Assembly: GCA_964653485.1 (NCBI GenBank)
Contig: CAZZFF010000019.1
Location: forward strand, 1,219 to 65,218
Direction: 5' to 3'
DNA from: an uncultured Verrucomicrobiota bacterium
GTDB lineage: Bacteria; Verrucomicrobiota; Verrucomicrobiia; Limisphaerales; UBA8199
DNA length: 64,000 nt
Positions 1,400 through 42,131 of the stretch are shown here, piece by piece; within the stretch, counting starts at the first letter, position 1; each line of letters opens with the position of its first letter. The position numbers and the translations under genes are program-made. The notes beneath the pieces were generated by a model. It worked only from the letters and a program-made list of their open reading frames with translations. It was not told the origin of the DNA and did no database searches.

Positions 1400-2749
1400 A
1401 TGAACCGACAACCAAACCTCACACGGCGTCAATTTCTCTCAACCTCCGCTATAGCGGCGACCGCTTTCAGCCTGGCGCCACGCCACGTCGTGGCGGGCAG
1501 CGGCGAGACCCCGCCCAGCGAACAAATCAACATAGCCGGCATTGGAGTCGGGGGGCAGGGGGCCGGAGACATCGAGGAGGTCTCGCGGGGGAGCAATATT
1601 GTGGCCCTGTGCGACGTGGACCTGGCGCACTCCGGCGGGACTTTCCAGAAGTTCCCCAAGGCGAAGCAGTTTCGCGATTTCCGGAAGATGTTCGACGAGA
1701 TGGAGAAGAGCTTCGACGCCGTGGTGGTGGCCACGCCCGACCATTGCCACGCGGTGGCCGCGATGGCCGCCATCAAGCACGGAAAACACGTCTATTGCGA
1801 GAAGCCGCTGGCCCATTCTATCCATGAAGTCCGTGAGCTAATGCGGGCGGCCCGAGAGCACAAGGTTGTGACCCAGCTTGGGAACCAGGGCCACTCGTTC
1901 GAGACTATCCGCCTGTTCTGCGAGTGGGTGCGCGACGGGGCGATTGGCCAGGTCCATACCATCCACGCCGGCTGCAACGCCAGGAACTCGGGCATCGATC
2001 AACTGCCCCACCTCAAAGAGGAGCATCCCGTGCCGCCCACCCTCGATTGGGACCTTTGGCTTGGGCCGGCGCAGCAGCGGCCGTATCACCCCGCCTATCT
2101 GCCGGGCTCATGGCGGGGCTGGGTGCCCTTCGGCAACGGAACAGTCGGGGACTGGACCTGCCACGTCGTGGATCCCGTCTTTTGGGCCCTGGACCTCGGC
2201 GCGCCGGCCACCATTCAGGCCGACGTCAAGGATTACGACTTCAAGACCCAGGGCGACGCGTTCCCTTATGGTGAAGTCATCACCTACGAATTCGCGGCCA
2301 AAGGCAGCCGCGGGCCGGTGGTGATGCACTGGTACAGCGGCAACCGGCCTATACCCCGGCCGCCCGAAATGGAGCCGGACGAGAAGTCCATCGAGACGGG
2401 GGCGGTGGTCGTTGGCGACAAGGGCACCATTGTGTACGGCTCCCATGGAGCAGGCCAGGTGCGTCTGATTCCCCAGGCCAAGATGGACGCCTACCACAAA
2501 CCGGAAAAGACCATCCCTCGCGCCAAGGAGCACCACCAGGATTGGCTCCAGGCCATCCGCAACCACACCAAGGCTGGCTCCGACTTTTCCTACGGCGGGC
2601 CGCTGACCGAGATTGCCCTGCTGGGCATCATCGCCATCAAGATGGGCGGCAAGAAGCTCGAATGGGACGGCCAGAGGGCCCGCTTCAAGAACTCCCCCGA
2701 GGCCAACCTGTTCCTGAATCCGCCTTACCGGACGGGGTGGAGTTTGTAG
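1400..2749 (+). CDS. Gfo/Idh/MocA family oxidoreductase with Tat signal
   Basis: TRRQFL twin-arginine motif, IGVGGQG Rossmann motif, HVYCEKPLA motif; start moved to ATG 1400. Confidence 0.93.
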   Translation: MNRQPNLTRRQFLSTSAIAATAFSLAPRHVVAGSGETPPSEQINIAGIGVGGQGAGDIEEVSRGSNIVALCDVDLAHSGGTFQKFPKAKQFRDFRKMFDEMEKSFDAVVVATPDHCHAVAAMAAIKHGKHVYCEKPLAHSIHEVRELMRAAREHKVVTQLGNQGHSFETIRLFCEWVRDGAIGQVHTIHAGCNARNSGIDQLPHLKEEHPVPPTLDWDLWLGPAQQRPYHPAYLPGSWRGWVPFGNGTVGDWTCHVVDPVFWALDLGAPATIQADVKDYDFKTQGDAFPYGEVITYEFAAKGSRGPVVMHWYSGNRPIPRPPEMEPDEKSIETGAVVVGDKGTIVYGSHGAGQVRLIPQAKMDAYHKPEKTIPRAKEHHQDWLQAIRNHTKAGSDFSYGGPLTEIALLGIIAIKMGGKKLEWDGQRARFKNSPEANLFLNPPYRTGWSL

Positions 2750-2751
2750 GC

Positions 2752-4731
2752 GTGACCATCCGTGGTTTTCTGCTGGCCCTTCTCTGGCTTGCCTTGCCCG
2801 TTTCCATGGCAATGGCAGGCCAGAAGGTTCCCGACGCTGCCGCGCCGCGGCCGGCAGGTCCCACACTCCGCCCGCTGGCGGATGCGGGTTTTCCCGACCT
2901 CTTCGTCTGGACGGATACATGCAATGCCTACGTCCTCCGCGAGGGTGAGCGCGGCTTGCTCATCGATCTGGGCGACGGAAGCGTGCTGGACCACCTGCAC
3001 GAGATTGGGGTCAAGACAGTCGAGTGGGTCCTCTTCACGGGCCACCATCGCGAGCTGTGCCAAGGCTCTGCCCGCTTGAAAGGTTGGGATGCCCGCTTGG
3101 CCGGTCCGGGCGCGGAGCGGGCTCTCTTCGAGGACCCAACCTCCTTCCGCAAGATGCACCCGATGCTCGCAGACGCCTTCACTGTCCACAGCGCCAGCTA
3201 TGTTCGGCCCCCGGTGCAGCCTATTCCATTGGACAGGGTCTTCTCGCGGATGGACACCTTCGACTGGCGGGGCCACGAATTCTGGTGCGTCGAAACAAAA
3301 GGGAACAGCCCCGGCGGCATGAGCTATCTGCTCAAGGTCAACGGGCGGTGGATGGCGTTCTCGGGCGACGTGATGCTCGACGGGGCGCGCATGCACAATT
3401 ATTTCGACACGGAATGGGACTACAGTTTTGCCTCGGGCATCCGGGCCCTCCACAACGCGGCGGCGCTCGTGGAGGGTTTCGACCCGGCCTTGCTTCTGCC
3501 GGCCCATGGGCCGGTCATTCCGACGCCGAAACGGCAATTGCGGGAATTTCAGAAAAAGCTGCGCCGATTGGACAGCCTGGTCGTGCGCGGCTATGACGTG
3601 ATGCGCTTTGACACCGCCGATCAAGACCGTGTCTCCACCCCAACCTCCGTTCCCTTTGTCTGGCGCACCACGCCGCATCTCTACAAGTTCAAAGGCCCGG
3701 ACTATTACCCAAATTTCGTAATGCTCCTGGCCGACAGCGGCCATGCCCTGCTGGTCGATTGCGGGCTGTTCGAGGAACCGTTCCTGGACCGCTCGCTGGT
3801 CCTGATGCGGGAGCGGTTGGGCTTGAAACAGATTGATGCGGTCCTGATCAGCCACATGCACGGCGATCACATGCTCGAGGCGCCCCATCTGCGCCAGAAG
3901 TGGGGCGCCCCCATCTGGGCGCTCGACCGGGAGGCCGACCAGATGGAGCATCCCGAGCGGTACGATTATGCCGCGCCCATTCAGGCTTATGGGAAGGGAT
4001 TCGATTCTGTGCGGCCCGATCGCGTGCTTAAGTCGGGCGAGACTCTCGAATGGGAAGGGTACACGCTGACCGCGGACTGGATGCCGGGCCAAACGGAATT
4101 CGCCATGGGCCTCTCCGGCACGATCGACGGCCGGAAAGTGGTTTTCACCGGCGACAACATCTTCGCCGATCCCAGAAATCCGCGGCATACGGGCCATGAG
4201 GCGATCGTTGCCCGGAACAGCGGCATCCTCGAGGAAGGTTACATTTATGGCGCGGAGTACCTCACGCGGCTCAAGCCCGACCTCATCATGGGCGGCCACT
4301 CGTATGTCATGGAGCACCCGGCCGGACTCATCAAACGCTACCGCCAATGGGCCTACGACATGCGCGACTGCTTTCGGTCCTTGAGCACCGACTCGGATTA
4401 CCGTTACTGGTTCGACCCATTCTGGGTCCGCGCCCAACCGTACCGAGTGAGCCTTCAGCGCGGCAAGTCCGCCGAGTTGGCAGTCCAGGTGCGCAACTTC
4501 CGCCAAAGCCAACAAACCCATCGTGTCGAGATTCATACCCCTGTGGGCGTGGCCGCTGCACCTGCTGTTCTCGAGGGCATGCTCGGCGGCGAAACCCGCA
4601 AGTCATTCCCCGTCGTCCTCACCGCGAGCCGGGACGCGATTCCCGGCGTCCACATCGTCGCCTTCGACATCACCCTGGATGGCCATCGCTACGGGGAGTG
4701 GTTTGATTTTATCCTGAGCGTCGAGCCTTGA
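2752..4731 (+). CDS. Secreted metallo-beta-lactamase-fold hydrolase with two MBL domains (first degenerate)
   Basis: GTG 2752 directly after the upstream stop, hydrophobic signal ending SMAMA; N-domain LFTGHHRELCQG (degenerate), C-domain ISHMHGDHM (intact HxHxDH). Confidence 0.85.
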   Translation: MTIRGFLLALLWLALPVSMAMAGQKVPDAAAPRPAGPTLRPLADAGFPDLFVWTDTCNAYVLREGERGLLIDLGDGSVLDHLHEIGVKTVEWVLFTGHHRELCQGSARLKGWDARLAGPGAERALFEDPTSFRKMHPMLADAFTVHSASYVRPPVQPIPLDRVFSRMDTFDWRGHEFWCVETKGNSPGGMSYLLKVNGRWMAFSGDVMLDGARMHNYFDTEWDYSFASGIRALHNAAALVEGFDPALLLPAHGPVIPTPKRQLREFQKKLRRLDSLVVRGYDVMRFDTADQDRVSTPTSVPFVWRTTPHLYKFKGPDYYPNFVMLLADSGHALLVDCGLFEEPFLDRSLVLMRERLGLKQIDAVLISHMHGDHMLEAPHLRQKWGAPIWALDREADQMEHPERYDYAAPIQAYGKGFDSVRPDRVLKSGETLEWEGYTLTADWMPGQTEFAMGLSGTIDGRKVVFTGDNIFADPRNPRHTGHEAIVARNSGILEEGYIYGAEYLTRLKPDLIMGGHSYVMEHPAGLIKRYRQWAYDMRDCFRSLSTDSDYRYWFDPFWVRAQPYRVSLQRGKSAELAVQVRNFRQSQQTHRVEIHTPVGVAAAPAVLEGMLGGETRKSFPVVLTASRDAIPGVHIVAFDITLDGHRYGEWFDFILSVEP

Positions 4732-4854
4732 GCGGCGACGTGAGCGACTGCCCAGCCCGTCTCCTGGCATGGGCGGCCCTGGTCCCTGCGCCTGAACTTG
4801 CCCCCGCCGGCAGGCTTGTTTTTTCTCAGCCGCCCGTGAATAGTTAGAGGACGT

Positions 4855-7800
4855 ATGACCGAGACCATTGCGACTCGAAGCGGATTGGCCCTCCAAGTTG
4901 GCAAGCAGGCGACCGAGAAGGCCATCGAGATTGACCTCCGATTGGATGGCCGGCGAAAGTGCGTCTTGCACTGGGGGCTGCGCCAGCCGGGGCAGGATGC
5001 CTGGCGGCTGCCTCCGCAGACGGTCTGGCCCGCCCAAACTCGAGCCGTCGGGCCGGCCCTCCAGACGCCCTTCGCGCCGGAGGACGGCCACGGGAGCATC
5101 CGCATCCGCCTCCCGATGCCGGACGCATGTTCTTCCATTGATTTTGTCCTCTTCTTCCCGGACCAGCGGGCCTGGGACAACAACGGCGGCCGAAATTATC
5201 GCATCGAGATGCCCCAGGCTCAGCAGGACGGCGCCCCGTTGGACACGGCTCTCAAAGAATACGCCGGCCAGAAGAAGCTCCTTTTTCAACGTGTTTTCGA
5301 TCTCGAACCGTCCGGGCGTCTGGCCGTCTTCGTGACTCGCGAGGAAGATCGGTTCGTCATCATGATGCTGACCGATGTGCCGGATCTCCTGCTGCACTGG
5401 GGGATTGCCCGGTACTCGTCCTATGAGTGGTTCGCCCCGCCGGCCTCGCTCCAGCCCCCGGGGACCGTCCTTTGGGAAGGCCACACGGCGCAAACGCCGT
5501 TCACGGTCCAGGACGGCCTGGGCCGGTTGCGGCTGGAGATACCCCAGGCCGACGCCCCAATGGGCCTTCAATTTGTGCTCAAACAGGCCCAGGCCAACCG
5601 ATGGCTCCGGTATCGCGGGGGGAATTTCTTCATCCCAGTTCGTATCGATTACGAACAAAAGTCCGGCATCAGCTCGCCGGAACTGACCGGCATCGTCGAC
5701 CAGATCGTTCGGGCGGAGATGGGCGGAGGTTCCTGGACGCTCATGCACCGGTTCAATCTCTGCCATGACTTGCTGGACCGGGTCGCGGGCAACGGAGACG
5801 GGCTGGCGCTGCTTTTTGTCTGGCTCCGCTACTCGACGCTGCGTCAACTGACCTGGCAGCGCCAATACAACACCAAGCCCCGCGAGTTGAGCCACGCCCA
5901 GGAGCGGCTTACCCACAAGCTGGCCCAGTTTTACAGCCAGGACCCGCCCAACCGCCCCGTTCTGCGTCTCCTGCTGTCCAGCGTCGGCCCCGGCGGCGAG
6001 GGCCAGCGCATCCGCGACGAAATCCTCAACATCATGCACCGCCATCACGTCAAGGAAGTCGCCGGCCACTTCCTCGAAGAATGGCATCAGAAACTGCACA
6101 ACAATGCGACACCCGACGACATTGTCCTGTGCGAGGCCTACCTCGAGTTCCTTTATTCCAACGGCAACCTCGACCGATTTTACGAAAAACTCCTGCAGGG
6201 CGGCGTCACTCGGCAGCGCCTTGAGAGCTTCGAGCGGCCTATCCGGAGCCAGCCCGATTTTGTCCCGCACCTCAAGGACGCGCTGATCGCCGATTTCCAG
6301 CAATTCCTCCGCATCCTGCGCTCGGTCCACGCGGGGACGGACCTGGAGACCGCCATCAACGGGGCCCGCTCGCAGTTGGATGCCAACACCCAAGACCTCC
6401 TGTGGCGCATCTGGGAGCGCCGGCACGGGCCGACGACCCTTCCCGATTTGGCGGCCGAGATTGCCGAAGCGCGCCACCGGCTTGGCCCTCGCCTGGCCGG
6501 CGGGGCCGATGCCCGTGAATTGCTATACCTGGACCTGGCTCTTGAACAGTTCCTTCGCCTGATGGTCGAGCGGAACCTCCAGAACGCCTCCGGCGGCGAC
6601 GCCCTGGTCGAACTCATCGCGTCCCTGGTCCAGAATCGCCTTCTGTCCACGGACGACGCGGAGTTGGGAGCTTGCGAGCGGTTTTGGCAGCGGCTCAAAG
6701 AGCAGCCGCGCTTCGGGGCCGATTGGTCGCTGCGCGCCAAATCGGCGGCAGACCGCATCGGGCGCGTGCTGAGCGGCTTGATCGACCGCACCTACCAGAT
6801 GCTCCAGCCCAAGGCGGAGTGGCTTGGCCACGCCTTCCACGCGGACGCCTGGGTGGTGACGCTCTTCAGCGAAGAGGTTGTGCGCGGCAGCAGCCTTGAT
6901 TTTGTGCTCTCGATGCTTTTGCGCCACCTGGAGCCGGTTCTCCGCCAGGCCGCCCACCTGGGCCACTGGCAAATCGTCAGCCGGGGCAGCGGCAGCGGCA
7001 TTGTCGAGGTCGTCGACCAATTGCGGGCCGTCCAGGGGAAGGCATTCGACCGCCCTCGTGTCGTCGTCGCCGAGCACGTCAGCGGCGACGAGGAGATTCC
7101 CGAGGCGGTCACAGCCGTGATCGCGCCGGACGTGACCGACATCGTGTCACACGTGGCGGTGCGGGCGCGCAACGCCGGCCTGCTCTTCGCATCGTGTTAC
7201 GACTCCGAAACGTTCAATCGGCTCAAGGGCCTCCAAGGCCGCGCGGTTCGGGTGCAAGTCAGCCCAAGCGGGGACGTGCAGGTGGAGGAGACCCAGGAGA
7301 AACTGATCAAACAGGCCCCCGCTCCCACTCGCTGGGCGCGCACAGCCAAGGTCCGACCTCGGTCGAGCGCGTGGGCGCTGGGCGCCGCCGATTTCGAGCC
7401 GTCCCTCACCGGCGGCAAGGCCCGCAACCTGGTCCGCCTGGACGGCAAACTTCCCGCGTGGGTGGGCCGGCCCGCTTCGATCGCCGTTCCCTTTGGCGTG
7501 TGTGAACGTGTGTTTGCGGCGCCTCCAAACCGCGCCGTTGCGGAGCGATACCAACAACTGCTCCGGCAACTCGAGACCGAGCCGGCCCTTGCCTTGCCGG
7601 GCCTGCGCGAGGTCATCCTCAAGCTCAAGGCCCCGCCCGAACTGGCTTCAGCCCTGGCCCAACAAGCGGGGTCGGCCGGCCTGGCCTGGCCGCCGGATTT
7701 CCAGGATGCCTGGCTCTGCATCAAGCGAGTGTGGGCTTCCAAGTGGAATGACCGGGCCTTTCACAGCCGCCGCGCCCAGGGCCTCCCGCACGAGGACCTG

Positions 7801-8316
7801 CTCATGGCCGTGCTCGTCCAGCAGGTGATCGAGGCGGACTATGCCTTTGTGCTCCACACGGTCAACCCTTTCAGCAACCGCCCCGAAGAGCTTTACGTCG
7901 AGGTTGTCCAGGGCCTGGGCGAGACCCTCGTCGGAAACTATCCCGGCCGCGCCCTCAGCGCGGTCATTGACCGTAAATCCAAAACAATCACCCTCCTGAG
8001 CTATCCCGGCAAGAGCCTGGTCCTTCGGGGCGGCGGCCTTATCTTCCGCTCGGATTCCAATGGCGAAGACCTCGCCGGCTTCGCGGGCGCCGGACTCTAT
8101 GACAGCGTCCTGCTCCCGGCCCCCCAAAGCTCTCTGGCGGAGTACACAAACGACCCGCTGGTCTGGGATGAATCGTTCCGGCGCGACGCCTTGCTGCGGA
8201 TGGCCGAACTCGGCCTTGCCGTCGAAGCCGCGGTCGGCGCTGCGCAGGACATCGAGGGCGTCTTGAGCAAGGGAAATTACTTCATCGTCCAAACCCGGCC
8301 GCAAGTGGGATTATGA
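4855..8316 (+). CDS. Alpha-glucan water dikinase (plant GWD1/R1-like): 2x CBM45-like, phospho-His domain, PPDK-type nucleotide-binding domain
   Basis: LHWG...W..PP...P..T...QTPF twice; WLRYSTLRQLTWQRQYNTKPRELSHAQERLT; GQRIRDEIL...EEWHQKLHNNATPDD; DIVSHVAVRARN; VWASKWNDRA...MAVLVQQVIEADYAFVLHTVNP; FRSDSNGEDLAGFAGAGLYDS. These match plant GWD blocks as recalled. Confidence 0.92.
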   Translation: MTETIATRSGLALQVGKQATEKAIEIDLRLDGRRKCVLHWGLRQPGQDAWRLPPQTVWPAQTRAVGPALQTPFAPEDGHGSIRIRLPMPDACSSIDFVLFFPDQRAWDNNGGRNYRIEMPQAQQDGAPLDTALKEYAGQKKLLFQRVFDLEPSGRLAVFVTREEDRFVIMMLTDVPDLLLHWGIARYSSYEWFAPPASLQPPGTVLWEGHTAQTPFTVQDGLGRLRLEIPQADAPMGLQFVLKQAQANRWLRYRGGNFFIPVRIDYEQKSGISSPELTGIVDQIVRAEMGGGSWTLMHRFNLCHDLLDRVAGNGDGLALLFVWLRYSTLRQLTWQRQYNTKPRELSHAQERLTHKLAQFYSQDPPNRPVLRLLLSSVGPGGEGQRIRDEILNIMHRHHVKEVAGHFLEEWHQKLHNNATPDDIVLCEAYLEFLYSNGNLDRFYEKLLQGGVTRQRLESFERPIRSQPDFVPHLKDALIADFQQFLRILRSVHAGTDLETAINGARSQLDANTQDLLWRIWERRHGPTTLPDLAAEIAEARHRLGPRLAGGADARELLYLDLALEQFLRLMVERNLQNASGGDALVELIASLVQNRLLSTDDAELGACERFWQRLKEQPRFGADWSLRAKSAADRIGRVLSGLIDRTYQMLQPKAEWLGHAFHADAWVVTLFSEEVVRGSSLDFVLSMLLRHLEPVLRQAAHLGHWQIVSRGSGSGIVEVVDQLRAVQGKAFDRPRVVVAEHVSGDEEIPEAVTAVIAPDVTDIVSHVAVRARNAGLLFASCYDSETFNRLKGLQGRAVRVQVSPSGDVQVEETQEKLIKQAPAPTRWARTAKVRPRSSAWALGAADFEPSLTGGKARNLVRLDGKLPAWVGRPASIAVPFGVCERVFAAPPNRAVAERYQQLLRQLETEPALALPGLREVILKLKAPPELASALAQQAGSAGLAWPPDFQDAWLCIKRVWASKWNDRAFHSRRAQGLPHEDLLMAVLVQQVIEADYAFVLHTVNPFSNRPEELYVEVVQGLGETLVGNYPGRALSAVIDRKSKTITLLSYPGKSLVLRGGGLIFRSDSNGEDLAGFAGAGLYDSVLLPAPQSSLAEYTNDPLVWDESFRRDALLRMAELGLAVEAAVGAAQDIEGVLSKGNYFIVQTRPQVGL

Positions 8317-8362
8317 CCCGGGCGGGCGGGAATAGCGGGGCGGCCGCAACAAAGGCATCTCC

Positions 8363-8875
8363 TCAGGAAAAACTGAAGTGCCGGACGGGTTCAGTTCGCG
8401 CCGCCTGGGCCGCTACCGTCGGGAGTGAGGCGTGGCCGGAGGTTTCGCGCGGGTTCAGGTTGGCGCATTTCTCACTGAGTTGGCGCGCTGTCTCCACCAA
8501 GTCGCGGAAATTGATCCGCTTGGCGAAAAAGAACCTGGCGCCCAAGGCGAGGGCCTTCCGGATGTCCGGCTCGTAATCAACGTCACTGAGCAACCCAATG
8601 ACGAGGCGGTGGAAAGAGCGATGCTGGCGCAGCCGGTCCAAAAGCTCCAACGCGCTCATGCCGGGCAGGCGCAACTCCGTCACGAAGAGGTCCGGAAACG
8701 GGAAGCGGACCCGATCCCCGTAAGGTCCGAGGCCTTGCAGATAATCGATGGCTTGCCGGCCGTCCTGGACAAAATGGAGAGTGACAGCCGACCCCACTTT
8801 TTTGAAGGCGAGCGCCAGGAAGAAAGCGTCATCGGGATTGTCGTCGGCCACGAGGATCGTTGGTTTGCCAGGCAT
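8363..8875 (-). CDS. Stand-alone response regulator receiver protein
   Basis: ILVADDNPDD, FVQDGRQAIDYL, GAxxFFAK receiver pattern; the expected phospho-acceptor position reads VTELRLP. Confidence 0.85.
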   Translation of the reverse strand: MPGKPTILVADDNPDDAFFLALAFKKVGSAVTLHFVQDGRQAIDYLQGLGPYGDRVRFPFPDLFVTELRLPGMSALELLDRLRQHRSFHRLVIGLLSDVDYEPDIRKALALGARFFFAKRINFRDLVETARQLSEKCANLNPRETSGHASLPTVAAQAARTEPVRHFSFS

Positions 8876-21808: not shown

Positions 21809-24297
21809 TCAGGGCCAGCGCAGACGGTAGAAGCGACTTGGATACTTTGCCCACTGGGGATCGCTGAAATAAAACAGGCCGCCAGTGAGGAGATTCGTGG
21901 TCATCGGAGACCAGACGGGGCTGGTGAGGCTCGTGCTCGCCTCCACAACGACGGTCATGCCACTGGCCCAGTTGACGTTGAACCCGAATTGATTGGATTT
22001 AACCCCGAAGGCGGCATCACCGGTTTGCACCCGGGGAGTCCACAGGACGGTTGGGAGGCCGGTGGAGTTGGTGCTCCATCCTGTCGTTCCGGGAAGGTAA
22101 TAGACGGTTGCGGTGTCGCCGGAGAACGCTTCAAAACCGATGGCGGGAGCGTTACCCAGGAAATAGACTCCCTCAAGACTTAGGCTGTGCCAAAGCGCAT
22201 AGTTGCCGATGTTTGTGACGCTGTTCGGGATCGTGAGGTTAATCAGGCTCGTGCCGTATCCGAACGCCAAAGCTCCGATGCTGGCGACCCCGGCAGGGAC
22301 CGTATAGGTTCCGGCTCTGCCTGCGGGGAACTGAATGAGCGTCCGTTGGCTCTTGTCGAACAGGACTCCGTCCAGACTGCTGTATGCCGGATTGAGGGCG
22401 TCCACCGTTATCGCGCCAAGGCTGGCGCAGTCGCTGAACGCCGCATAGCCGATGCTGGTGACGCCGCCGCCAATGGCGACGTTGGTCAAGCCGGCGCAGA
22501 GATAGAACGCCGAACCGCCGATGTTTGTGACGCTGTTCGGAATCGTGAGGTTAATCAGGCTCGCGGAGTATGCGAATGCCCAATCTCCGATGCTGGCGAC
22601 GCCGTCGGGAACCGCATAGCTTCCGGCTTCGCCCGCGGGGAATTGAATGAGCGTCCTTTGGCTCTTGTCGAACAGGATTCCGCCCAAACTGCTGTAAGCC
22701 GGATTGAGCGCATCCACGGTGATCGCGGCAAGGCGGGTGCAGTATCTGAACGCCCCATCCCCGATGCTGGTGACGCCGTCGCCGATGGTGACGCTGGTCA
22801 GGCTCGTGCAGGAATAGAACGCCATCTCGCCGATGTTCGTGACGCTGTTCGGAATGGCGACGCTGGTCAGGCCGGTGCCGTCGAACGCACCGTTCCCCAT
22901 GCTGGTGACGCCGTTCGGGATCGCGATGCTGGTCAGACGGGTGCCCTCGAATGCCCAGGCCCCAATGCTGCTGACATCGGCGCCGATCGTGACACTGCTC
23001 AGGAGGGTTCCAGCGAATGCCGAGTCACCAATGCTGGTGACGCCGTCTCCGATGAAGGCGTTGGTTAGGCTGGCGCAGGAAAAGAACACGGAACCTCCCA
23101 TGTTGGTCACGCTGTTCGGGATCGTGACGTTGGTCAGAGCCGTGCCCTGGAACGCAGCGTTGCCGATGCTGGTGACGCTGTTCGGAATCGCGATGCCGGT
23201 CAAAGCCGTCCCCTCGAACGCAGAGTTTCTGACGCTGGTGACGCCGGCGCCTATCGTGGCGCTGGTCAGCCTGGCGCACAGAAAGAACGCGGAGTTTCCG
23301 ATGGTAATGACGCTGTTGGGGATCGTGACGCTGGTCAGTCCCGTGGCCAGGAACGCCCCATCCCCGATGCTGGTGAGGCCGGCACCCATCGTGACATTGG
23401 TCAGGCTGGAGCATTCAGAAAACGCGGAGTCCCCAAGGCTGGTAACGCTGTCCGGAATCGTGACACTGTTCAAGCCGGCCCCCCGGAACGCTGAGTTTCC
23501 AATGCTGGTAACATTGGTGCCGATCGTGGCGCTGGTCAGGCTGGAGCAGCTCGAGAACGCAGAGTTTCCGATGTTGGTGGCACCGTTGGGGATCGTGATG
23601 CTGATTAGTCCGCTGCCCTCGAACGCCGAGTCCCCAATGCTCGTGACGCCGGCGCCTATCGTGAGGTTGGTCAGACTGACGCACTCGGAAAACGCAGAGT
23701 CCCCCAGGCTGGTGACGCTGTCCGGAATTCTGACGCCGGCCAGATTGGGGCAGAAGCCGAACGCAGAGTTTCCGATGTTGGTGACGGTGTTGGGGATCGT
23801 GACGTTGATTAGCCCGCTGCCCTCGAACGCCGAGTCCCCAATGCTAGTGACGCCGGCGCCTATCGTGACGTTGGTCAGGCTGGAGCACGCCGAAAAGGCA
23901 AAGTCCCCCAGGCTGGTGACGCTGTCCGGAATTCTGACGCCGGCCAGATTGTAGCAGAAGAAGAACGCAGAGTTTCCGATGTTGGTGACGCTGTTGGGGA
24001 TCGTGACGCTGGTCAAACTGGCGTCTCGGAACGCATTAGTACCGATGCTGGCGACCGGCAGGCCATTGAGCATGCTTGGGATGGAGACGGACCCGCCAGG
24101 ACCAGTGTATCCCGTGATCGTGATCGCGCCGTTGTTGGTCGTGTAATTGAATTGGGCTTGAGCCACCGCAGGCAGCGTCGCCAGCGACAGCAGCAGCAGG
24201 CTGGCGCCCCAGGCGGCCCTCAATCGCCTGGCTCCCGCCTTTGGGCAGTGTGAGCCCGCGGAGGGCGTTTTCGATACGATGCAGATTTCTGTTTTCA
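21809..24297 (-). CDS. BspA-type leucine-rich repeat (LRR_5) surface protein
   Basis: Many 22-23 aa LTSVTIPNSVTxIGxxAF repeats after signal ...LPAVAQA; start uncertain (24297 or 24370). Confidence 0.92.
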
Positions 24298-24565
24298 TGG
24301 GTCGCCGCCTTCTGAATTCCCAGACCCCTTCATTGTGTCTCTTATCATTCATAAGGAGCCCTTTGCTCATAGCTTAGTCGGAGCCGGAGCCGTGATTTAT
24401 TCAGGGCAGGCGGGTTTATTGAGGCGGTGCTGACCTGGGCGGCCGGCCCAGGCTTGCATGGGCCGCGCCGTCGGCGCTATGAAAAGGCTAGCGGTTCGCA
24501 AAACGTTCCGCGGTGGGCGCTGTCCAATCTCCGTGCGTGCGCATTCCCGAAAACAAATTCGCGTC

Positions 24566-31611: not shown

Positions 31612-32534
31612 CAACGCTGAGAAGAAGCGCATATCGCGGCGATCGAAGGGGTTTGCCTCCTGGCGCGGCCGCGCCAGGGGGCCGGAGCCGCCGCGCCGGC
31701 GGCGGCGCCGCTTGCCGTCCGTCCAGGCGCCGGGCGCCTGCGGAGGGCGGGCGGGCGGCGTTTACGCTTGTCGAGTTGCTTGTGGTGATCGCCATCATCG
31801 CCATTTTGGCCGCGCTCCTGCTGCCGGCCCTGGCCAGGGGGAAGGCCAAGGCCTACCGAGCGGTTTGCTCGAGCGACCTCTTGCAGATGGGCCAGGCGGC
31901 GAACATGTATGCCGCCGACAACCGCGATTTCATGGCCTGGCCAAATTGGCAGACCCTCGGCGCCGTTTCTCCGGAGCCTGACCCCTGCGGCCCGCCGGTC
32001 CATCCGATGGGCGGCTGGCTCTACACTCCCGGCGTCCCGCCCGACCCGACGGTCAGCCCGTACAGCGCCAACCCGATTGCCGCCTGGCAGCAGGGGCTTT
32101 GGTTTCCGTACCTGCGCACCCCGGGCGTTTATCTGTGCCCCGTGAGCCTGAGGAGCCAGTACTACGCCCAGCGTATCAACAAGCTGTGCGGTTACCTGAT
32201 GAACGGAGGGGTCTGCGCCTTTGGACAACTGTACTTGCAGAGGGCCCCCTCGCCCACGTGGAGGACGAGCGACATCTGGAGCCCGATGTGCTGGCTGTTG
32301 TGGGAGCCGGATGAGAGCCTGGGCCAGCCGCCGGTGGGCGGCTACGCTTATGCTGACGGCAGCGTTTATCCGGACCAGATGACCGCCCTGACCCGGAGTC
32401 ACGGCCCCGGTGCGGACATCCTCGCCTTGGCCGGCCACGTCCAGTTCGTCCACCTCAACCAGTTCGCCGCCGAACAAACTAACAGCGCCCGGGGGCTGCT
32501 CTGGTGGAATCCTGGAACAGCCAGCGGGCGCTGA
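31608..32534 (+). CDS. Prepilin-type N-terminal cleavage/methylation domain protein (pseudopilin-like)
   Basis: [35 protein letters not shown]; GGAGGAGGAG RBS and TTG 31608 overlapping the upstream TGA. Confidence 0.88.
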
Positions 32535-32548
32535 ACGAACACTCAACC

Positions 32549-34615
32549 ATGAAATCCCTCCTCTATGGCTCAGCCCTCCTGGCCCTCGCGTACCAGGCGT
32601 TAGCCCAGACCAACGATCCGCTTGACCAATGGCAGTCGTATGACCCGCTGCCGAGCAATTTCCTTGGCAGCGTTGCTTTTCTCAACGGGCAGTTTTGGGG
32701 TGTTGGCGATGGCACCGTCTGGGCATCCCAGGACGGCACTAACTGGGCTTGCTCCGGCCTCCTCCCGATGGACGGGCCTTTCGCGATCGCCTACGGGAAC
32801 GGCACCTACGTGGTCGTGGGGATCGTCCAGACTGTTGCCGGCATGAACTACTCGGGCGGGCTCATCGCGACATCCCCGGACGGTGCCGCCTGGACCGCCC
32901 AGCAGGGCCCCCTGGGCTACGCCATTGGGAATGGTCCGGCGGGTCTCTGGTTGCCCATCTTTAGTCCAGGCGCCAGCCCCATCGCTTTCGGGAACGGGGT
33001 CTTTGTCGTGTGGGTCGAACTCGAGGACGGCACTGTGGCTGTCCTGACCTCGCCCGACGGCATCCAGTGGGCCATTCACGAGTTCGGGGACACGGCCCTC
33101 GTAAAGGACATTACGTTCGGCAACGGCATTTTTGCGGCGCTGGCCAGCGACGCGAGTGGCAATTATCGTCTCATCACGTCCGCCGACGGAGTGCTCTGGA
33201 CGCCGCACCCTTCTCCAGTCGGCCCGGTGCCATGTTTGGGCTACGGGGGCGGTTCATTCATCGTCTTGGGCGGCGGGTCAACTGTAGATGCCGTCGCGAC
33301 CTCCACAAACTGCGCCGCCTGGACGACCAACACGGTTTCCTGGCCATTTCGTGATTCTCCCTGGGACGTCGCTTATGGAAACGGGCTGTTCGTCGCCGCG
33401 TGTTCGGGCGGCGGCGTCGCGGTATCGGCCAACGGCATCGCCTGGGCGGATTCCGGCTTCGCGGCGTTGAGCGACGTGATGGGTGTCTGCTATGGCAAGG
33501 GCGCGTTTGTCGCGGTCGGCCCCGGACCGCCGGCGGTGTCGACCGACGGCGTGAGGTGGGACCAACCGGCGCCGGTGGCTGACCTTTGGATCAACGGGGT
33601 CGTTTATGCTAGGGACAGGTTCGTCGCCGTTGGCTGCGAGGGCTTGTGGAGCCCTTACAACGGCGTCGGCGTCATTTTCGGCTCGGCCGATGGGATGCAC
33701 TGGAGCGTGGCCCACCCGGTCGTGGAGGGGCTGATGTCGGTCGCCTATGGGAACAGCCTTTTTGTGGCCGCCGGCGGCAGCAACGTCGTGACATCCGCCG
33801 ACGGCATCAGTTGGGCTCCTCAGGCCCTCGGCGGGGCGGCTTCCATCCAGAGCGTTGCCTACGGGGAGGGCCAGTTCGTCGCTGTCGGCGGGGCCATCCT
33901 CACCTCGACTGACGGCGTCCACTGGCTCCAGCGGAATCCAGGAACCAACGTGGGCCTCGCGCAAGTCGTCTATGGCAACGGCGCTTTTGTCGCGCTGCTT
34001 GACGCGCCAGGTGGGGCGGTGCTTGCCTCCCCGGACGGCGTGGCCTGGACGCTGCAGAGCTCCGGCACGACCGACCAGCTTCTGGGGCTGTGCTACGGAC
34101 AGGGCGTGTTTCTGGCTGTCGGCAACCAGACCGTCCTCACCTCCACCGATGGCGTTCATTGGTCCGCGCCGGGCTCGAGCCCCCCCTGGTCGGGCGAGGT
34201 GGTGGGACCCGCCTATGTACACGGGATGTTCGCCGTCTGCAGCGGTGGCGGCTTCTTCACATCGACCAACACCGTCGACTGGGTCCTCCACGACACGGGG
34301 TGCGGCTGCAGGCTCACCGGCTTGGCATTCGGCGGGGCCACCCTCGTTGGGGTGGGGGAGTCCGGCAGAGTTGTGCAATCTGGCACAATGACCTCGTGGC
34401 CCATGCGCCTCGCGCCGCTGCCGTGGCGGGGGACCGGTCCCTTTCAGATCACGGTCGCCGGGCCTGCTAATCACAACTGGGAAATAGACGCGTCCAGCGA
34501 CCTCTTTGGCTGGGCCCCGCTCGCAAATCTCTGGAGCACGAACGGCGTGATCACGCTCACCGATCCCGGGGCCCCGCATCAAGCCCGCCAGTTCTACAGG
34601 GGCGAGTGGTGGTGA
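32549..34615 (+). CDS. Secreted BNR/WD40-YVTN-like beta-propeller repeat protein, copy 1
   Basis: Signal MKSLLYGSALLALAYQALA; repeated VAYGNG.FVAVG...LTSPDG..W units; C-terminal ...DASSDL..W..L.N..STNG..TDP....FYR domain. Confidence 0.88.
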   Translation: MKSLLYGSALLALAYQALAQTNDPLDQWQSYDPLPSNFLGSVAFLNGQFWGVGDGTVWASQDGTNWACSGLLPMDGPFAIAYGNGTYVVVGIVQTVAGMNYSGGLIATSPDGAAWTAQQGPLGYAIGNGPAGLWLPIFSPGASPIAFGNGVFVVWVELEDGTVAVLTSPDGIQWAIHEFGDTALVKDITFGNGIFAALASDASGNYRLITSADGVLWTPHPSPVGPVPCLGYGGGSFIVLGGGSTVDAVATSTNCAAWTTNTVSWPFRDSPWDVAYGNGLFVAACSGGGVAVSANGIAWADSGFAALSDVMGVCYGKGAFVAVGPGPPAVSTDGVRWDQPAPVADLWINGVVYARDRFVAVGCEGLWSPYNGVGVIFGSADGMHWSVAHPVVEGLMSVAYGNSLFVAAGGSNVVTSADGISWAPQALGGAASIQSVAYGEGQFVAVGGAILTSTDGVHWLQRNPGTNVGLAQVVYGNGAFVALLDAPGGAVLASPDGVAWTLQSSGTTDQLLGLCYGQGVFLAVGNQTVLTSTDGVHWSAPGSSPPWSGEVVGPAYVHGMFAVCSGGGFFTSTNTVDWVLHDTGCGCRLTGLAFGGATLVGVGESGRVVQSGTMTSWPMRLAPLPWRGTGPFQITVAGPANHNWEIDASSDLFGWAPLANLWSTNGVITLTDPGAPHQARQFYRGEWW

Positions 34616-34965: not shown

Positions 34966-35070
34966 CCAGCCACGTCCAATTCGTCCGCCTCAACCAGTTC
35001 GCCGCCGAACAAACTAACAGCGCCCGAGGCCTGCTCTGGTGGAATCCGGGAACAGCCACCGGGCGCTGAG
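34966..35070 (+). pseudogene. Orphan 3' end of a pseudopilin gene
   Basis: Encodes [32 protein letters not shown], matching the end of 31608-32534. Confidence 0.85.
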
Positions 35071-35083
35071 CAAGCACTCAACT

Positions 35084-37177
35084 ATGAAATCCCTTCTCTA
35101 CGCCGCGGCGCTCCTGGCCCTTGGGGGCCAGGTCCTTGGCCAGACCAACGATCCGCTTGACCATTGGCAGCGGTATGATCCTGCGCCGAGCAACTTCTTT
35201 TCCAGCGTTGGTTTTCTCAACGGGCAGTTTTGGGGCGTTGGCTGTGGTACTGTCTGGGGATCGCAGGACGGCACTAACTGGGCGTGCTCCGGTTTCGTCC
35301 CCATGGATGTACCCTTGGGCATCGCGTATGGGAACGGCACCTACGTGGTCGTGGGAGAGGACGGTTACGACCCCGAGCTTGACGGGACGGCAGGCCTTAT
35401 CACGACCTCGCCTGATGGAGTCGTCTGGACCGCTCAGTCTGGGCCGCCCGGGTACTCTGTCTTCGGTGGACCAGCAGGCTTTTGGTTTCCCGAGGCCGGT
35501 CCCGATGGCAACGCGGTCGTTTATGGCAACGGCTTGTTCGTCGTGGCGGTCACGCTGGAGGATAGCACTCCCGCCTTCCTGACGTCGCCGGACGGTGTCC
35601 AGTGGGCGATCCAGACCTTCGGAGACATCCACGCTATCTCGAGCCTTATCTTCGGCAATGGTCTGTTCGTAGCACTGGGCTATACGGGTGACTTCGGCGC
35701 CGGCGGCCAGAGCTTCCTGTTGACGTCCCAGGATGGGCAGCTTTGGACGAAGCACGCGGGCGGAACTGGGGGCTGGCTTGACTGGGTGGGCTACGGCAAC
35801 GGCACCTTCGTGCTTGGGAGCGGTTTAGGGCAGCTCCAGGCGGTCGCCGCATCAACCGACCTCCAAACGTGGACGACCAATGCGGCCCAGGGCACCGCCG
35901 GTTTCTACCCGGGTTCCATTGCCTATGGGGACGGAGTGTTCGTTGCCGCGGGCGGCGCGGGCGCCGTCTGGACTTCGCCGGACGGTCTTCAGTGGGCGAG
36001 CCACGACTCGGGCATATCCAATACCTTGTATTCCGTCGCCAACGGAAACGGGGTTTTCGTGGCCTCCTCGCGGTCGCCACCCGTCACGTCGAGCGATGGG
36101 GTCCACTGGACGGCGGCCAAGCCCGCGATCCCCGTAAGCATGTACGATGTCGTCTTTGCCCGAGGCCGGTTCGTGGCGGTCGGGCAGCAGACGGGCTCAT
36201 CAGCAGACTATCCCAGCCAGGGCGTAAGCATGACCTCGACGGACGGCGCCCACTGGAGCATCGCCTACACTGGGACCACGCAGTGCCTCAGTGTGGTTTA
36301 CGCTGATGGCCTTTTTGTAGCGGTGGGCGGCGACCAGGTTGTCACCTCGCCGGACGGGCTGAACTGGACCCCACGCGTCTCGGGCACTGCAAATTCCATC
36401 CAGAGCGTCGCTTACGGGAACGGCCTCTTGGTGGGGGTCGGCTGGAGTGGCACCGTCATCACCTCGACCAACGGCACCGACTGGATTTCGCGTAATCCGG
36501 CAACCAATGTTAGCATGATGCAGGTCGTTTACGGGAACGGCGTCTTCGTTGCGCTCTGGGAGAGCCAGGACGGCTCCATCCTCGTCTCGACCAACGGCGC
36601 GGACTGGCAGATCCGGGACTGCGGGGCAACCGATTGGGTCTGGGGACTGGGCTCCGGCGATGGGATGCTCTTCGTGGTGGGAAGACAGTCCCTTCTGGTG
36701 TCAACCAACGGGAGCGATTGGTTCACACTTGGATCCGGCATCTTCCCCTGGTATGACACCGGAAACCTTAAATACGCCCACGGGACCTTTCTCATCGTCT
36801 GCGGGTCGGGGGACATTTACGCCTCGACGAACGCGACGGACTGGGTGCTCCACAACACCGGTTGTGGCCAAGACCTATCTGGCTTGGCGTACGGCAACAA
36901 CACCTTCGTAGCGGTGGGAGAGGGTGGCACCATACTCCAGTCTGCCCCCACTCCTTCATGGCCTCTGCAACTTGCGCCTTCGGGTGTGCCCGGGCCAAAC
37001 GGATTTTCCCTCACCGCCTCCGGCCCCGCCGGGCACAACTGGGAGATTGACGCGTCCAGCGATCTCCTTGACTGGGCTCCGCTCGCAAATCTCTGGAGCA
37101 CGAACGGCGTGATCACGGTCACCGATCCGGCGGCCACAGCCTGCGCTCGCCGGTTCTATCATGGTCAGTGGTGGTGA
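35084..37177 (+). CDS. Secreted BNR/WD40-YVTN-like beta-propeller repeat protein, copy 2
   Basis: Paralogue of 32549-34615: same signal, repeats and C-terminal domain. Confidence 0.88.
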   Translation: MKSLLYAAALLALGGQVLGQTNDPLDHWQRYDPAPSNFFSSVGFLNGQFWGVGCGTVWGSQDGTNWACSGFVPMDVPLGIAYGNGTYVVVGEDGYDPELDGTAGLITTSPDGVVWTAQSGPPGYSVFGGPAGFWFPEAGPDGNAVVYGNGLFVVAVTLEDSTPAFLTSPDGVQWAIQTFGDIHAISSLIFGNGLFVALGYTGDFGAGGQSFLLTSQDGQLWTKHAGGTGGWLDWVGYGNGTFVLGSGLGQLQAVAASTDLQTWTTNAAQGTAGFYPGSIAYGDGVFVAAGGAGAVWTSPDGLQWASHDSGISNTLYSVANGNGVFVASSRSPPVTSSDGVHWTAAKPAIPVSMYDVVFARGRFVAVGQQTGSSADYPSQGVSMTSTDGAHWSIAYTGTTQCLSVVYADGLFVAVGGDQVVTSPDGLNWTPRVSGTANSIQSVAYGNGLLVGVGWSGTVITSTNGTDWISRNPATNVSMMQVVYGNGVFVALWESQDGSILVSTNGADWQIRDCGATDWVWGLGSGDGMLFVVGRQSLLVSTNGSDWFTLGSGIFPWYDTGNLKYAHGTFLIVCGSGDIYASTNATDWVLHNTGCGQDLSGLAYGNNTFVAVGEGGTILQSAPTPSWPLQLAPSGVPGPNGFSLTASGPAGHNWEIDASSDLLDWAPLANLWSTNGVITVTDPAATACARRFYHGQWW

Positions 37178-39733: not shown

Positions 39734-41827
39734 TTAGGGCCAGCGCAAGCGATAGAAGCGGGTCGGATAATTTGTCCACTGTGGATCGCTCAAATAAGCA
39801 GAGCCGCTCGTGATGATGTTCGTGGCAATCGGAGTCCACAAAGGATTGGCAAGATTCGTGCAGGCGTCAACTGCGACGGTCATCCCGTTGGCCCAGTCGA
39901 TGGTGAAGCCGAATTGATTGCTCCGAACGCCGAAGCTGTCATTGCTGGCCTGCAGCCGGGGGAGCCACAGCGCGACCGGAACTCCGGTGCTGGCGGATAC
40001 GTCGTCCCAGCCCGTAGTCCCAGGCAGGTAATAGAGCGTCAAATCACTGTCCCCGTCGAACACATCCTCACCAAAGCTGGGGGCGCCACCCTGGAAATAG
40101 ACTGCCGGCAGCTTGGTGCAGAAACCGAACGCCTCTTCTCCGATGTGAATGACGCTGTTGGGGATCGTGTAGCTTCCGACCTCGCCTCCCGGGTATTCAA
40201 TGAGCGTGGTCAGGTTCTTGTTGAACAGCACCCCATTCAAACTGCTGTAAGCAGGATTGTTTGTATCCACCGTGATTGCCGCCAGACTAGGGCAGTCTTG
40301 GAACACAGCCGGTCCAATGTTGGTAACGCTTGCGGGTATCGTGATGACAGGCAGGTTGGCGCAGTCGAAAAACGCATAGTCCCCGATGTTCGCGACGCCG
40401 CTGCCGAGCGAGAGATTGGCCAGTTTGGCGCAGCCATTGAACGCCCAGGGGCCAATGCTGCCGACACTGTTGGGGATCGTGACGCTGGCCAGGCCGCATA
40501 CCGAGAACGCAAAGGCCCCGATGTTGGTAATGCCGTTGCCGAGCGTGGCATTCGTCAGGCCGGCGCAGCCAGCGAACACCCCCGCACCGATGCTGGTGAC
40601 GCTGTCAGGGATCGTGAGGCTGGTCAGGCCGGCGCAATCATCAAACGCCCAGTTCCCGATGCTGGTGACGCTGTCAGGGATCGTGACGCCGGTGAGGCCG
40701 GCGCAGCCATCAAACGCCCAGTTCCCGATGCCGATCACGGTGTTGGGGATCGTGTAGCTTCCAACCCTGCCTACGGAACATTGAATGAGCGTGGTCAGGT
40801 TCTTGTTGAACAACACCCCATCCAAACTGGCATAGGCAGGATTGTTTGTATCCACCGTGATTGCCGCCAGACTGGGGCAGCCAGCGAACGGACCGGATCC
40901 AATGTTGGTAACGCTGCCGGGGATGGCGATGCCATCCAGGCCCGAGCAACCGGAGAACGCACCATCTCCGATGCTGCCGAGGCTGTTGGGAAGCGTGATG
41001 CTGGTCAGCGTGGCGCATTCACTGAACGCATCGTCTCCGATGTTAATGACGCTGTTGGGGATCGTGTAGCTTCCGGCCTGGCCTGCCGGGTATTCAATGA
41101 GCGTGGTCAGGTTCTTGTTGAACAACACCCCATCCAAACTGGCATAGGCAGGATTGTTTGTATCCACCGTGATCGCCACCAGACCAGAGCACCCAACGAA
41201 CGGACTGGGTCCAATGTTGGTAACGCTTGCGGGTATCGTGATGCGAGTCAGGCCCAAGCAATCGGAGAACGCATCGTCTCCGATGTTTATGACGCTGTTG
41301 GGGATCGTGTAGCTTCCGACCCCGCTTCCCGGGTCTTCAATGAGTGTGGTCTGGTTCTTGTTGAACAACACCCCATTCAAACCGCTGTAAGCGGGATTGT
41401 TTGTATCCACCGTGATCGCCGCCAGACTGGGGCAGTCTTCGAACGCCTCGTTCCCGATGCTGGTGACGCTGGCGGGGATCGTGACGCCAGCCAGGCTGGG
41501 GCAGTAGGCGAAGGCCATGTCCCCGATGTTGGTAACGCCATTGGGAATCGTGACGCTAGTGAGGTTGTTCAAGCTGAAGAACGCCCCGTCCCCGACGCTG
41601 GTGACGGGCAGGCCAGCGACCACGCTGGGGATGGTCACCGCCCCACCAGAACCGGTGTATGCCGTGATGGTAATCGTGCCGTTGGTGACTGCGTAATCGA
41701 ATTGGGCTCGCACCACGGCAGGCAGCGCCAACATCAACAGCAGCGGTAGAATCCATGAAACGAAGACCCGACCCACAATAGCCATTTTGACGGCCAGAAT
41801 TCCGAGCACTGTCTTAGTTGTCTTCAT
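39734..41827 (-). CDS. BspA-type leucine-rich repeat surface protein, second paralogue
   Basis: LRR_5 repeats, signal ...LPAVVRA-QFDYAVTNG, same C-terminal domain as 21809-24297; start set at ATG 41827. Confidence 0.92.
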   Translation of the reverse strand: MKTTKTVLGILAVKMAIVGRVFVSWILPLLLMLALPAVVRAQFDYAVTNGTITITAYTGSGGAVTIPSVVAGLPVTSVGDGAFFSLNNLTSVTIPNGVTNIGDMAFAYCPSLAGVTIPASVTSIGNEAFEDCPSLAAITVDTNNPAYSGLNGVLFNKNQTTLIEDPGSGVGSYTIPNSVINIGDDAFSDCLGLTRITIPASVTNIGPSPFVGCSGLVAITVDTNNPAYASLDGVLFNKNLTTLIEYPAGQAGSYTIPNSVINIGDDAFSECATLTSITLPNSLGSIGDGAFSGCSGLDGIAIPGSVTNIGSGPFAGCPSLAAITVDTNNPAYASLDGVLFNKNLTTLIQCSVGRVGSYTIPNTVIGIGNWAFDGCAGLTGVTIPDSVTSIGNWAFDDCAGLTSLTIPDSVTSIGAGVFAGCAGLTNATLGNGITNIGAFAFSVCGLASVTIPNSVGSIGPWAFNGCAKLANLSLGSGVANIGDYAFFDCANLPVITIPASVTNIGPAVFQDCPSLAAITVDTNNPAYSSLNGVLFNKNLTTLIEYPGGEVGSYTIPNSVIHIGEEAFGFCTKLPAVYFQGGAPSFGEDVFDGDSDLTLYYLPGTTGWDDVSASTGVPVALWLPRLQASNDSFGVRSNQFGFTIDWANGMTVAVDACTNLANPLWTPIATNIITSGSAYLSDPQWTNYPTRFYRLRWP

Positions 41828-42131
41828 AGGTGTCCTAATTCTGTCGAGAAGCGGCATGTCAATATCCACTCCGGCGGGTCTCAAGCCTCACCGGCATGGG
41901 CAGCACTATCCCCGGCAACCACACAGACTCTTTTTGCAACATCCACCATTGTCAAAGTTTCTTTCCAAGGGTGCAAGCCAAATCCGCCCGCCCGAAACGT
42001 GCCCACAAGGCCCCGTTCTTTATCGGACCACGCTCTGGTAATCCGTCTCGTCGTCGGCTTTCACAACGACGCGGAGGTCGGAATTCGCGGCTTTCAATTG
42101 GCGCAGTTTGTCCTTGAGGGCGGAGCTTTTT

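Follow-up and report, generated by a model that had tools for sequence, protein, structure and literature searches.

The window examined here, a stretch of 64,000 nucleotides from an uncultured Verrucomicrobiota bacterium, carries near its left end a complete gene for a protein of 1153 residues which, judged by its domains and residues, is a genuine orthologue of α-glucan, water dikinase (GWD). This enzyme is usually viewed as belonging to starch-accumulating eukaryotes and as having arisen with the primary plastid (PMC6260743). The ATG is preceded at 6 nt by a Shine–Dalgarno-like GAGGA, and the N-terminus is consistent with the start of the homologues, both in the homologue search and in a 12-sequence alignment (A1, see below). 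A preliminary description of this DNA had reported an open reading frame (ORF) of this length lacking a signal peptide; it is found exactly at 4855..8316 on the + strand, and the first 60 residues contain no hydrophobic stretch (the highest Kyte–Doolittle mean over 19 residues is 0.17). The motifs quoted in that description also lie where it placed them: LHWG at residues 38 and 180 (nt 4966 and 5392) and QTPF at residues 70 and 213, within the repeat units LHWG...W..PP...QTPF (residues 38–73 and 180–216); QLTWQRQYNTKPRE at residue 331, GQRIRDEIL at 383 and EEWHQKLHNN at 408, in the central part; and SHVAVRARN at 765 (nt 7147), WASKWNDRA at 960 and FRSDSNGEDLAGFAGAGLYDS at 1064, in the C-terminal half. 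Since a terminator-like hairpin precedes the gene and the gene downstream is convergent (8363–8875, − strand), GWD is probably transcribed as its own unit. The features are as follows (AF2, AlphaFold2 model).

4797..4824, + strand: terminator-like hairpin (4797–4814) with T-run, between the upstream MBL-fold gene and GWD (consensus scan; weak evidence)
4855..8316, + strand: complete coding sequence of the GWD orthologue (ORF list; ATG start, 1153 residues, stop codon included)
4855..5214, + strand: CBM45-type β-sandwich domain 1, residues 1–120, LHWG with W40 (PF23166; AF2 strands at residues 2–118; W40 nearly invariant)
5278..5640, + strand: CBM45-type β-sandwich domain 2, residues 142–262, with W182, W192, P195 and W250 (best PF23166 stretch at residues 145–262; AF2 strands at residues 142–261)
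5677..6954, + strand: all-helical central (glucan/phosphotransfer) domain, residues 275–700, with EEWHQKLHNN (408–417) and E673/E674/R677 (phmmer; about 20 helices in the AF2 model)
6967..7290, + strand: phospho-histidine (swiveling) domain, residues 705–812 (PF22973)
7150..7152, + strand: codon of the predicted catalytic His766, in SHVAVRARN (residues 765–773; invariant in alignments A1 and A2)
7387..8304, + strand: C-terminal ATP-grasp nucleotide-binding domain, residues ~845–1150 (PF01326 PPDK_N; Foldseek)

Domain architecture and conserved residues

By its predicted domains the protein is a cytoplasmic GWD with the five-domain layout CBM45–CBM45–central–His–ATP. Pfam recognizes PF23166 (the GWD1 N-terminal Ig-like/CBM45 region) twice (E=1.2e-40), PF22973 (GWD1_pHisD) at residues 705–816 (E=3.7e-35) and PF01326 (PPDK_N; E=8e-22), while in a phmmer search of PDB sequences residues 280–700 match the crystallized central domain of potato GWD1 (9ha9/9qvi; E=1.7e-79), the other matches being only ATP domains of phosphoenolpyruvate (PEP) synthase-type enzymes. 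An AF2 model made from 38 homologues (mean pLDDT 80.5) has predicted β-sandwiches at residues 2–118 and 142–261, a helical region at 275–699, an α/β His domain at 705–812 and an ATP-grasp domain at about 845–1150. The full-length GWD with two CBM45 domains, glucan domain, phospho-His domain and nucleotide domain, as first proposed, is therefore borne out by Pfam, PDB match and model together, at a level well above anything that chance would give. In Foldseek the model best matches rifampin phosphotransferase (5hv6; E=5e-9, TM 0.76 on the target), through the ATP-binding domain of that enzyme, and PEP synthase and then PPDK follow for the same domain; the PDB set searched is older than the entries for the GWD1 central domain, hence the ATP domain alone was matched. 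The potato enzyme StGWD1 has been described with the same five-domain plan and its ATP domain, too, is nearest to rifampin phosphotransferase; the crystallized part of plant GWD is the central domain only (PMC13553574).

Membership of related families was examined in the same way. Two PF23166 stretches, two model β-sandwiches and the conserved W40, W182, W192 and W250 speak for a pair of CBM45-type domains, with glucan binding predicted. The protein is not a phosphoglucan, water dikinase (PWD/GWD3), as it has CBM45-type domains and no Pfam match to PF01261 or CBM20. Nor is it a PEP synthase or PPDK: these enzymes and rifampin phosphotransferase share the His-swivel dikinase chemistry but have the nucleotide domain first, the reverse of the order found here, and only the ATP domain matches. 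The best NCBIfam scores (RedH, PEP synthase, rifamycin phosphotransferase) are about 50–65 bits against cut-offs of 598–1350, and these sub-threshold matches are confined to residues ~955–1028, in the ATP domain.

Plant and algal GWD1 (R1, SEX1; EC 2.7.9.4), represented by StGWD1 and by the Gossypium protein P0151, have the same five domains in the same order. The Gossypium enzyme is 38% identical to the window protein over residues ~119–1151 (about 790 bits), and common to both are SH[VI][AS]VRARN, EExxR, EEWHQKLHNN, the CBM45 tryptophans and a late FRSDSNGEDL..AGLYDS. In contrast to land-plant GWD1, the window protein has no plastid transit peptide, its N-terminus beginning at the first β-strand, and the linker between the CBM45 domains is ~20 residues long instead of ~200, which accounts for its smaller size (1153 residues, as compared to about 1400–1470). 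The plant CFATC motif, for which Mikkelsen et al. in 2005 reportedly established a redox role, reads LFASC, its first Cys being absent. Thus, on these comparisons the protein counts as a GWD that lies outside the land-plant GWD1 subtype; the label "plant-type" given to it earlier fits the architecture, but not the transit peptide, the ~200-residue linker or CFATC, all of which are missing.

Alignment A1 comprises the window protein, Gossypium GWD1, Nymphaea GWD2, the Picocystis, Cyanidium, Gloeochaete and Stentor GWDs and five bacterial proteins; the window protein is 36–41% identical to its eukaryotic (plant, algal and ciliate) members. His766, the counterpart of StGWD1 H992, is invariant in all 12 sequences and in the 38 sequences of a second alignment, A2. 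Across the bacteria and eukaryotes of A1 the residues that follow it (V769, R770, A771, R772 and N773) are also invariant, as are G744, E746 and P749 of the acidic G-x-E..P loop that precedes it, and E673, E674 and R677 of the EExxR helix of the central domain. The last three correspond to StGWD1 E900/E901/R904, on a helix proposed to act as proton donor and stabilizer (PMC13553574). Nine of the ten positions of EEWHQKLHNN are invariant (the second glutamate, E409, varies), and in the second CBM45-type domain W182, P195 and W250 are invariant, W192 and W40 of the first domain nearly so.

Proposed activity and linkage to glycogen genes

Genomes were scanned at one per GTDB species, which gave at least 80 loci; 75 related bacterial loci were used for the analysis of context, in which about 1,000 ORFs were clustered and the recurrent families annotated. 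At least one gene of α-glucan metabolism lies within 10 kb of GWD in 41 of the 75. The linked families are GlgA (GT5), a GT4/GT5 synthase, GlgB, a GH57 branching enzyme and other GH57 proteins (some containing DUF3536), as well as GH13 of the hDGE_amylase type, GlgX/isoamylase, GH77 MalQ, GT35 phosphorylase and DUF4912; glgA or glgX is often directly 5′ of GWD and the GH13 gene directly 3′, on the same strand. This linkage is the main support for an α-glucan substrate in bacteria and, because GWD sits among glycogen genes in those genomes, it is probable that storage glucan is phosphorylated in some bacteria, as it is in plants and algae. Moreover, a closely related organism, whose GlnD is 89% identical to that of the window, has on one contig an operon made up of glgA, a second dikinase gene and a gene for a 337-residue protein, which makes it likely that the window organism, too, produces glycogen.

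Phosphorylation of the glucan is regarded as the switch that renders semi-crystalline starch degradable. We consider it highly probable that the window protein catalyzes ATP-dependent phosphorylation of an α-glucan by the His-swivel mechanism of GWD, in a reaction of the EC 2.7.9.4 type (ATP + α-glucan + H2O → AMP + phospho-α-glucan + Pi). If the mechanism of potato GWD1 can be borrowed by homology, the C-terminal ATP-grasp domain would bind ATP, His766 on the swiveling domain would receive the β-phosphate while the γ-phosphate passes to water, and the His domain would then pivot to the helical central domain, to face E673/E674/R677. There the phosphate would be transferred to a glucosyl hydroxyl of an α-1,4-glucan held by the two CBM45-type domains, at C6 if the enzyme acts as GWD1 does. 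The likeliest substrate would be the storage polyglucan of the bacterium, either glycogen or a variant with longer chains and lower solubility, and phosphorylation may loosen or solubilize ordered chains, thereby governing the access of degrading and remodeling enzymes. The physiological role is thus most likely the phosphorylation of the cell's own α-glucan, which we put forward with less confidence than the activity itself. The same proposal, made when the gene was first described, has gained indirect support from the 41 loci with adjoining glycogen genes in other genomes, but the role is still one that we infer.

Several observations weigh against this interpretation. Most bacterial orthologues lie in α-glucan clusters and/or before a TIM barrel or second dikinase (see below), whereas the window copy is a solo gene: the 64 kb contain neither a glycogen gene nor a TIM-barrel partner or second dikinase. 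A tblastn search of the window with eight α-glucan enzyme families from related loci returned nothing and the Pfam families of the neighbors are unrelated, in agreement with the preliminary description, in which GWD stood alone. Plant GWD acts poorly on bacterial glycogen, which is soluble and short-chained (PMC13011383), so that the need of a bacterium for the enzyme lacks an explanation. In addition, the CX5R motif of laforin/SEX4-type phosphatases was found in none of the about 1,000 ORFs near bacterial GWDs, which leaves the dephosphorylation half of the cycle with no candidate of that type. Finally, the literature searched yielded no functional study of any bacterial GWD. The earlier caveat that bacterial orthologues might already be characterized thus applies in part, in that bacterial sequences are annotated automatically as GWD and some figure in a published GWD tree (PMC6260743).

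The same chemistry might serve another target, such as maltodextrins or pieces of starch that are imported from the debris of plants or algae, or a different α-glucan of the cytoplasm, for example, the product of the GlgE pathway. The GH3 glycosidase and sugar oxidoreductases near the gene in the window would fit such a role, and the adjoining GH13 protein at many related loci is hDGE_amylase/GlgE-like and not a classical glg product. We nevertheless regard this as unlikely, because the commonest neighbors are synthesis genes (glgA, GT4/5, branching enzymes) and not uptake systems, no sugar transporter family is found among the recurrent neighbor clusters examined, and the dependence on ATP together with the lack of a signal peptide points to a cytoplasmic enzyme. 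Very unlikely, in our view, is a neofunctionalized dikinase that has kept the fold but acts on another polysaccharide or on a small molecule. Acceptor switches do occur in the superfamily, as in the rifampin and phenolic phosphotransferases, the best NCBIfam matches, far below threshold, are to RedH, PEP synthase and rifamycin phosphotransferase, and the window offers no glycogen context. Those matches, however, cover the ATP domain alone, at about 65 bits, and it is the acceptor side, that is, the two CBM45 domains and the central domain, that is best conserved with plant GWD, its residues being invariant; the orthologues, moreover, are strongly linked to glycogen genes.

If the proposed phosphorylation of the cell's own α-glucan holds, bacterial storage glucans may be phosphorylated and are perhaps more ordered than has been assumed, with a bearing on carbon storage in abundant uncultivated bacteria of soil and sediment and in anammox and magnetotactic bacteria. 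Bacterial GWDs might also serve as tools for the enzymatic phosphorylation of starch and, being compact (about 1150 residues, with a short linker and no transit peptide), could be easier to express and crystallize than the plant enzyme.

Bacterial provenance, spread and evolution

The contig is bacterial and the composition of the gene is native. GWD has a GC content of 0.650 (0.806 at third codon positions, GC3) and a codon usage typical of the window; its near flanks code for a GFO/IDH/MocA oxidoreductase, a double MBL-fold protein, a response regulator, URO-D, ECF sigma factors, GlnD, a nitrilase-family protein and GH3, and farther genes for Dus, RseP, HtrA-like proteases, HipA and ABC transporters (Pfam). 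The named best matches of GlnD are from Verrucomicrobiota and Limisphaerales, and GWD copies with 86–89% identity in independent samples are accompanied by similar upstream genes (MBL-fold, GFO_IDH_MocA). Together with the grouping of the window GWD with Verrucomicrobiota copies in the trees below, this makes a soil-type member of the Verrucomicrobiota the likely source. That faulty assembly placed a gene of an alga or plant in a bacterial contig, or that the contig itself is eukaryotic, can for practical purposes be dismissed: the nearest characterized relatives are eukaryotic and metagenome assemblies are sometimes chimeric, but the reading frame is unbroken between bacterial genes (ECF sigma, response regulator, GlnD, RseP, HipA), GC, GC3 and codon usage match those of the neighbors, the recurring upstream genes come from independent assemblies, orthologues lie within bacterial contigs of up to 3 Mb, and the transit peptide and long plant linker are missing. 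Contamination or a chimera is thus ruled out by flanking genes, composition and independent assemblies.

The gene is not the isolated oddity that it first appeared to be. A search of 5.8 billion proteins (E≤1e-10) returned 1345 clusters; the best 120 of these are all full length (about 1030–1280 residues) and 53–89% identical to the window protein, and many of the matching clusters bear the label "alpha-glucan, water dikinase" (JGI) or "PEP/pyruvate-binding domain-containing protein" (NCBI). The window gene is therefore one of thousands of family members already in databases, in a large bacterial family that JGI annotates automatically as GWD. At least 75 reference species of bacteria, from about nine phyla and nearly all uncultivated, have a full-length orthologue; the groups include Verrucomicrobiota, Nitrospirota/Thermodesulfovibrionia (Ca. 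Magnetobacterium casense, Ca. Magnetominusculus), Desulfobacterota, Myxococcota, Planctomycetota (Ca. Anammoxibacter, Phycisphaeraceae), Acidobacteriota, Chloroflexota, Omnitrophota and Gammaproteobacteria. These uncharacterized orthologues have 1140–1200 residues, are 41–89% identical to the window protein and share its Pfam architecture. Nearly all carrier genomes are metagenome-assembled genomes (MAGs) or enrichment genomes, which is possibly why biochemistry on bacterial GWD is so scarce. An exhaustive search of representatives at 50% identity gave 550 at E≤1e-30, into which eukaryotic GWDs enter from about 800 bits down (cotton, water-lily, Picocystis, Mesostigma, Cyanidium, Gloeochaete, Cryptomonas, Rhodomonas, Diacronema, Cymbomonas, Stentor, Vitrella, Chromera and Effrenium). 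A family this widespread in bacteria, tied to glycogen genes and to the TIM-barrel and second-dikinase module described below, has been little studied and would surprise most starch researchers.

Among the carriers, eight Nitrospirota loci, several of them magnetotactic (L032, L035, L038, L048, L052, L064, L071 and L075), have a gene for a protein of ~195 residues, without Pfam match, preceding GWD, and six of the eight (all except L048 and L075) a class I methyltransferase gene farther upstream; none of the eight has glg genes nearby.

Neighbor-joining trees were built from 830 columns (residues 280–1153), with bacterial paralogues as outgroup and bootstrap, on sets of 55 and 174 taxa. The clan of second-dikinase paralogues splits off at 100% bootstrap, with the window protein inside the GWD part, where it joins Verrucomicrobiota MAG copies, also at 100%. 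Support for the main bacterial clan is 91%, 82% and 24% under three distance corrections with 55 taxa, and 21–25% with 174 taxa. Under the three corrections, bacteria appear as sister to glaucophytes at 46%, 40% and 14%, and a clan of all eukaryotes at 4%, 10% and 40%. An Auribacterota sequence branches beside the outgroup (92%) and a Margulisbacteria sequence among the eukaryotes. The Verrucomicrobiota group takes in sequences of Chloroflexota and Acidobacteriota, and those of anammox bacteria join Nitrospirota, both at 100%; this conflict between tree and taxonomy indicates that GWD has moved between bacterial phyla. Cenci et al. (2018) had a few bacterial sequences in their GWD tree and suggested lateral gene transfer into bacteria (PMC6260743); our trees neither confirm nor overturn that suggestion. 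The exclusively bacterial sister family and the deep bacterial branches leave room for a bacterial origin. The lineage may bear on the origin of the eukaryotic enzyme, as was suggested at the outset, but the trees lend no firm support to any one place of the bacteria, be it as sister to, nested in or ancestral to the eukaryotic GWDs. With prokaryotic outgroups at hand, the origin of eukaryotic starch phosphorylation is now testable.

The transcriptome of the glaucophyte Gloeochaete wittrockiana contains, besides a longer GWD copy of the eukaryote type, a compact GWD of bacterial length (P0125, 1177 residues), which has 46% identity with the window protein (1027 bits). Either contamination or a true intermediate could account for this copy.

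Second dikinases, TIM barrels and other neighbors

Roughly half of the related loci also have genes for a TIM-barrel protein and for a second dikinase that resembles PWD. In 20 of the 75 loci, from several phyla, a xylose-isomerase-like TIM barrel of ~270 residues (PF01261) directly follows, or overlaps, the GWD stop codon, and in 18 of the 75 the barrel is fused to the N-terminus of the second dikinase, in the order [TIM barrel]–[central-like]–[GWD1_pHisD]–[PPDK_N]. A protein of ~340–445 residues without Pfam match usually comes after the second dikinase (14 loci). Examples are as follows (locus: coordinates).

L026:13021-13836, L005:6069-6893, L013:13569-14378: stand-alone TIM barrel (17 other loci have one)
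L007:13802-17311, L022:13032-16844, L034:13469-17059, L016:2680-6231, L085:5991-9557, L086:10001-13681: second dikinase, about 1150–1270 residues
L022:16859-17950, L034:17056-18081, L066:17180-18268, L086:13955-14968: protein of ~340–445 residues

The family of the second dikinase is as large as that of GWD (1284 matching clusters) and is named "phosphoglucan, water dikinase" by JGI; its members lack CBM20, the N-terminal domain of plant PWD, and no description of the TIM-barrel-fused architecture was found in the literature searched. The fused dikinase and the window protein have in common the central-like region, GWD1_pHisD and PPDK_N (31% identity to residues 626–1153), but the former has N-terminal PF01261 instead of the CBM45 domains, and its RSSANxEDL lies ahead of WASxW. 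In alignment A1, RSSANxEDL..AGLYES likewise precedes WASxW in the paralogue and in a GWD-like Auribacterota protein (P0248), and in the window protein, as in every eukaryotic GWD, the corresponding nucleotide-domain motif (residues 1064–1084) comes after WASxW (960–968). This order suggests that the ATP-grasp domain was rearranged specifically in GWD.

The nearest solved relative of the TIM barrel is the uncharacterized MJ1311 (E=8e-6 in a PDB sequence search), a search in which the partner protein of ~360 residues had no match. The ~340–445-residue protein has a distant profile link to the TIM barrel (hhalign, 92.7%) and invariant His/Asp-rich motifs (CIDIGH, HFHLHDGHP and SDH). With no CX5R motif in the neighboring ORFs, a metal-dependent barrel comes to mind as the phosphatase half of the cycle; that one of the TIM-barrel proteins supplies a glucan phosphatase, or a sugar-modifying, activity is a hypothesis only. 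Taken together, GWD, the TIM-barrel PWD-like dikinase, the lone TIM barrel and the ~360-residue protein could form a bacterial system for reversible glucan phosphorylation, in which a barrel acts as the phosphatase in place of laforin/SEX4. The system, present in many bacteria, would be ancient there and the source of the eukaryotic starch-phosphorylation enzymes, not a late acquisition from algae, and the window gene would be a stripped-down solo member. As a whole this scenario is tentative and, at present, rather doubtful.

As to the surroundings of GWD in the window, the gene just upstream (2737–4731, +) codes for a 664-residue MBL-fold protein with matches to Lactamase_B and Lactamase_B_2 and a weak match to Anti-Pycsar Apyc1; a gene of this kind also precedes a GWD with 89% identity from a different sample (L084). 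A 232-kb contig of a relative with an 89% identical GlnD (L088, JGI 3300041955) is syntenic with the window in the URO-D/DUF3106/ECF-sigma/GlnD block (2737–8875 compared), and has a guanylate-cyclase/TPR gene in place of the MBL-fold gene, GWD and the response regulator, so that GWD sits at a variable chromosomal spot.

Elsewhere, the 64 kb gave no tRNA or Rfam matches. A HipA-family toxin kinase (HipA_C and Couple_hipA) is encoded at 52523–53824 (−), with a GC content of 0.565, below that of the rest of the window; the small ORF directly upstream (53831–54073, −) is a possible HipB partner. Two large BspA-type leucine-rich-repeat proteins (PF13306) are encoded at 21809–24370 (−; E=8e-174) and 39734–41884 (−; E=4e-103), and between them lie genes for two DUF6242 proteins (32504–34615 and 35039–37177).

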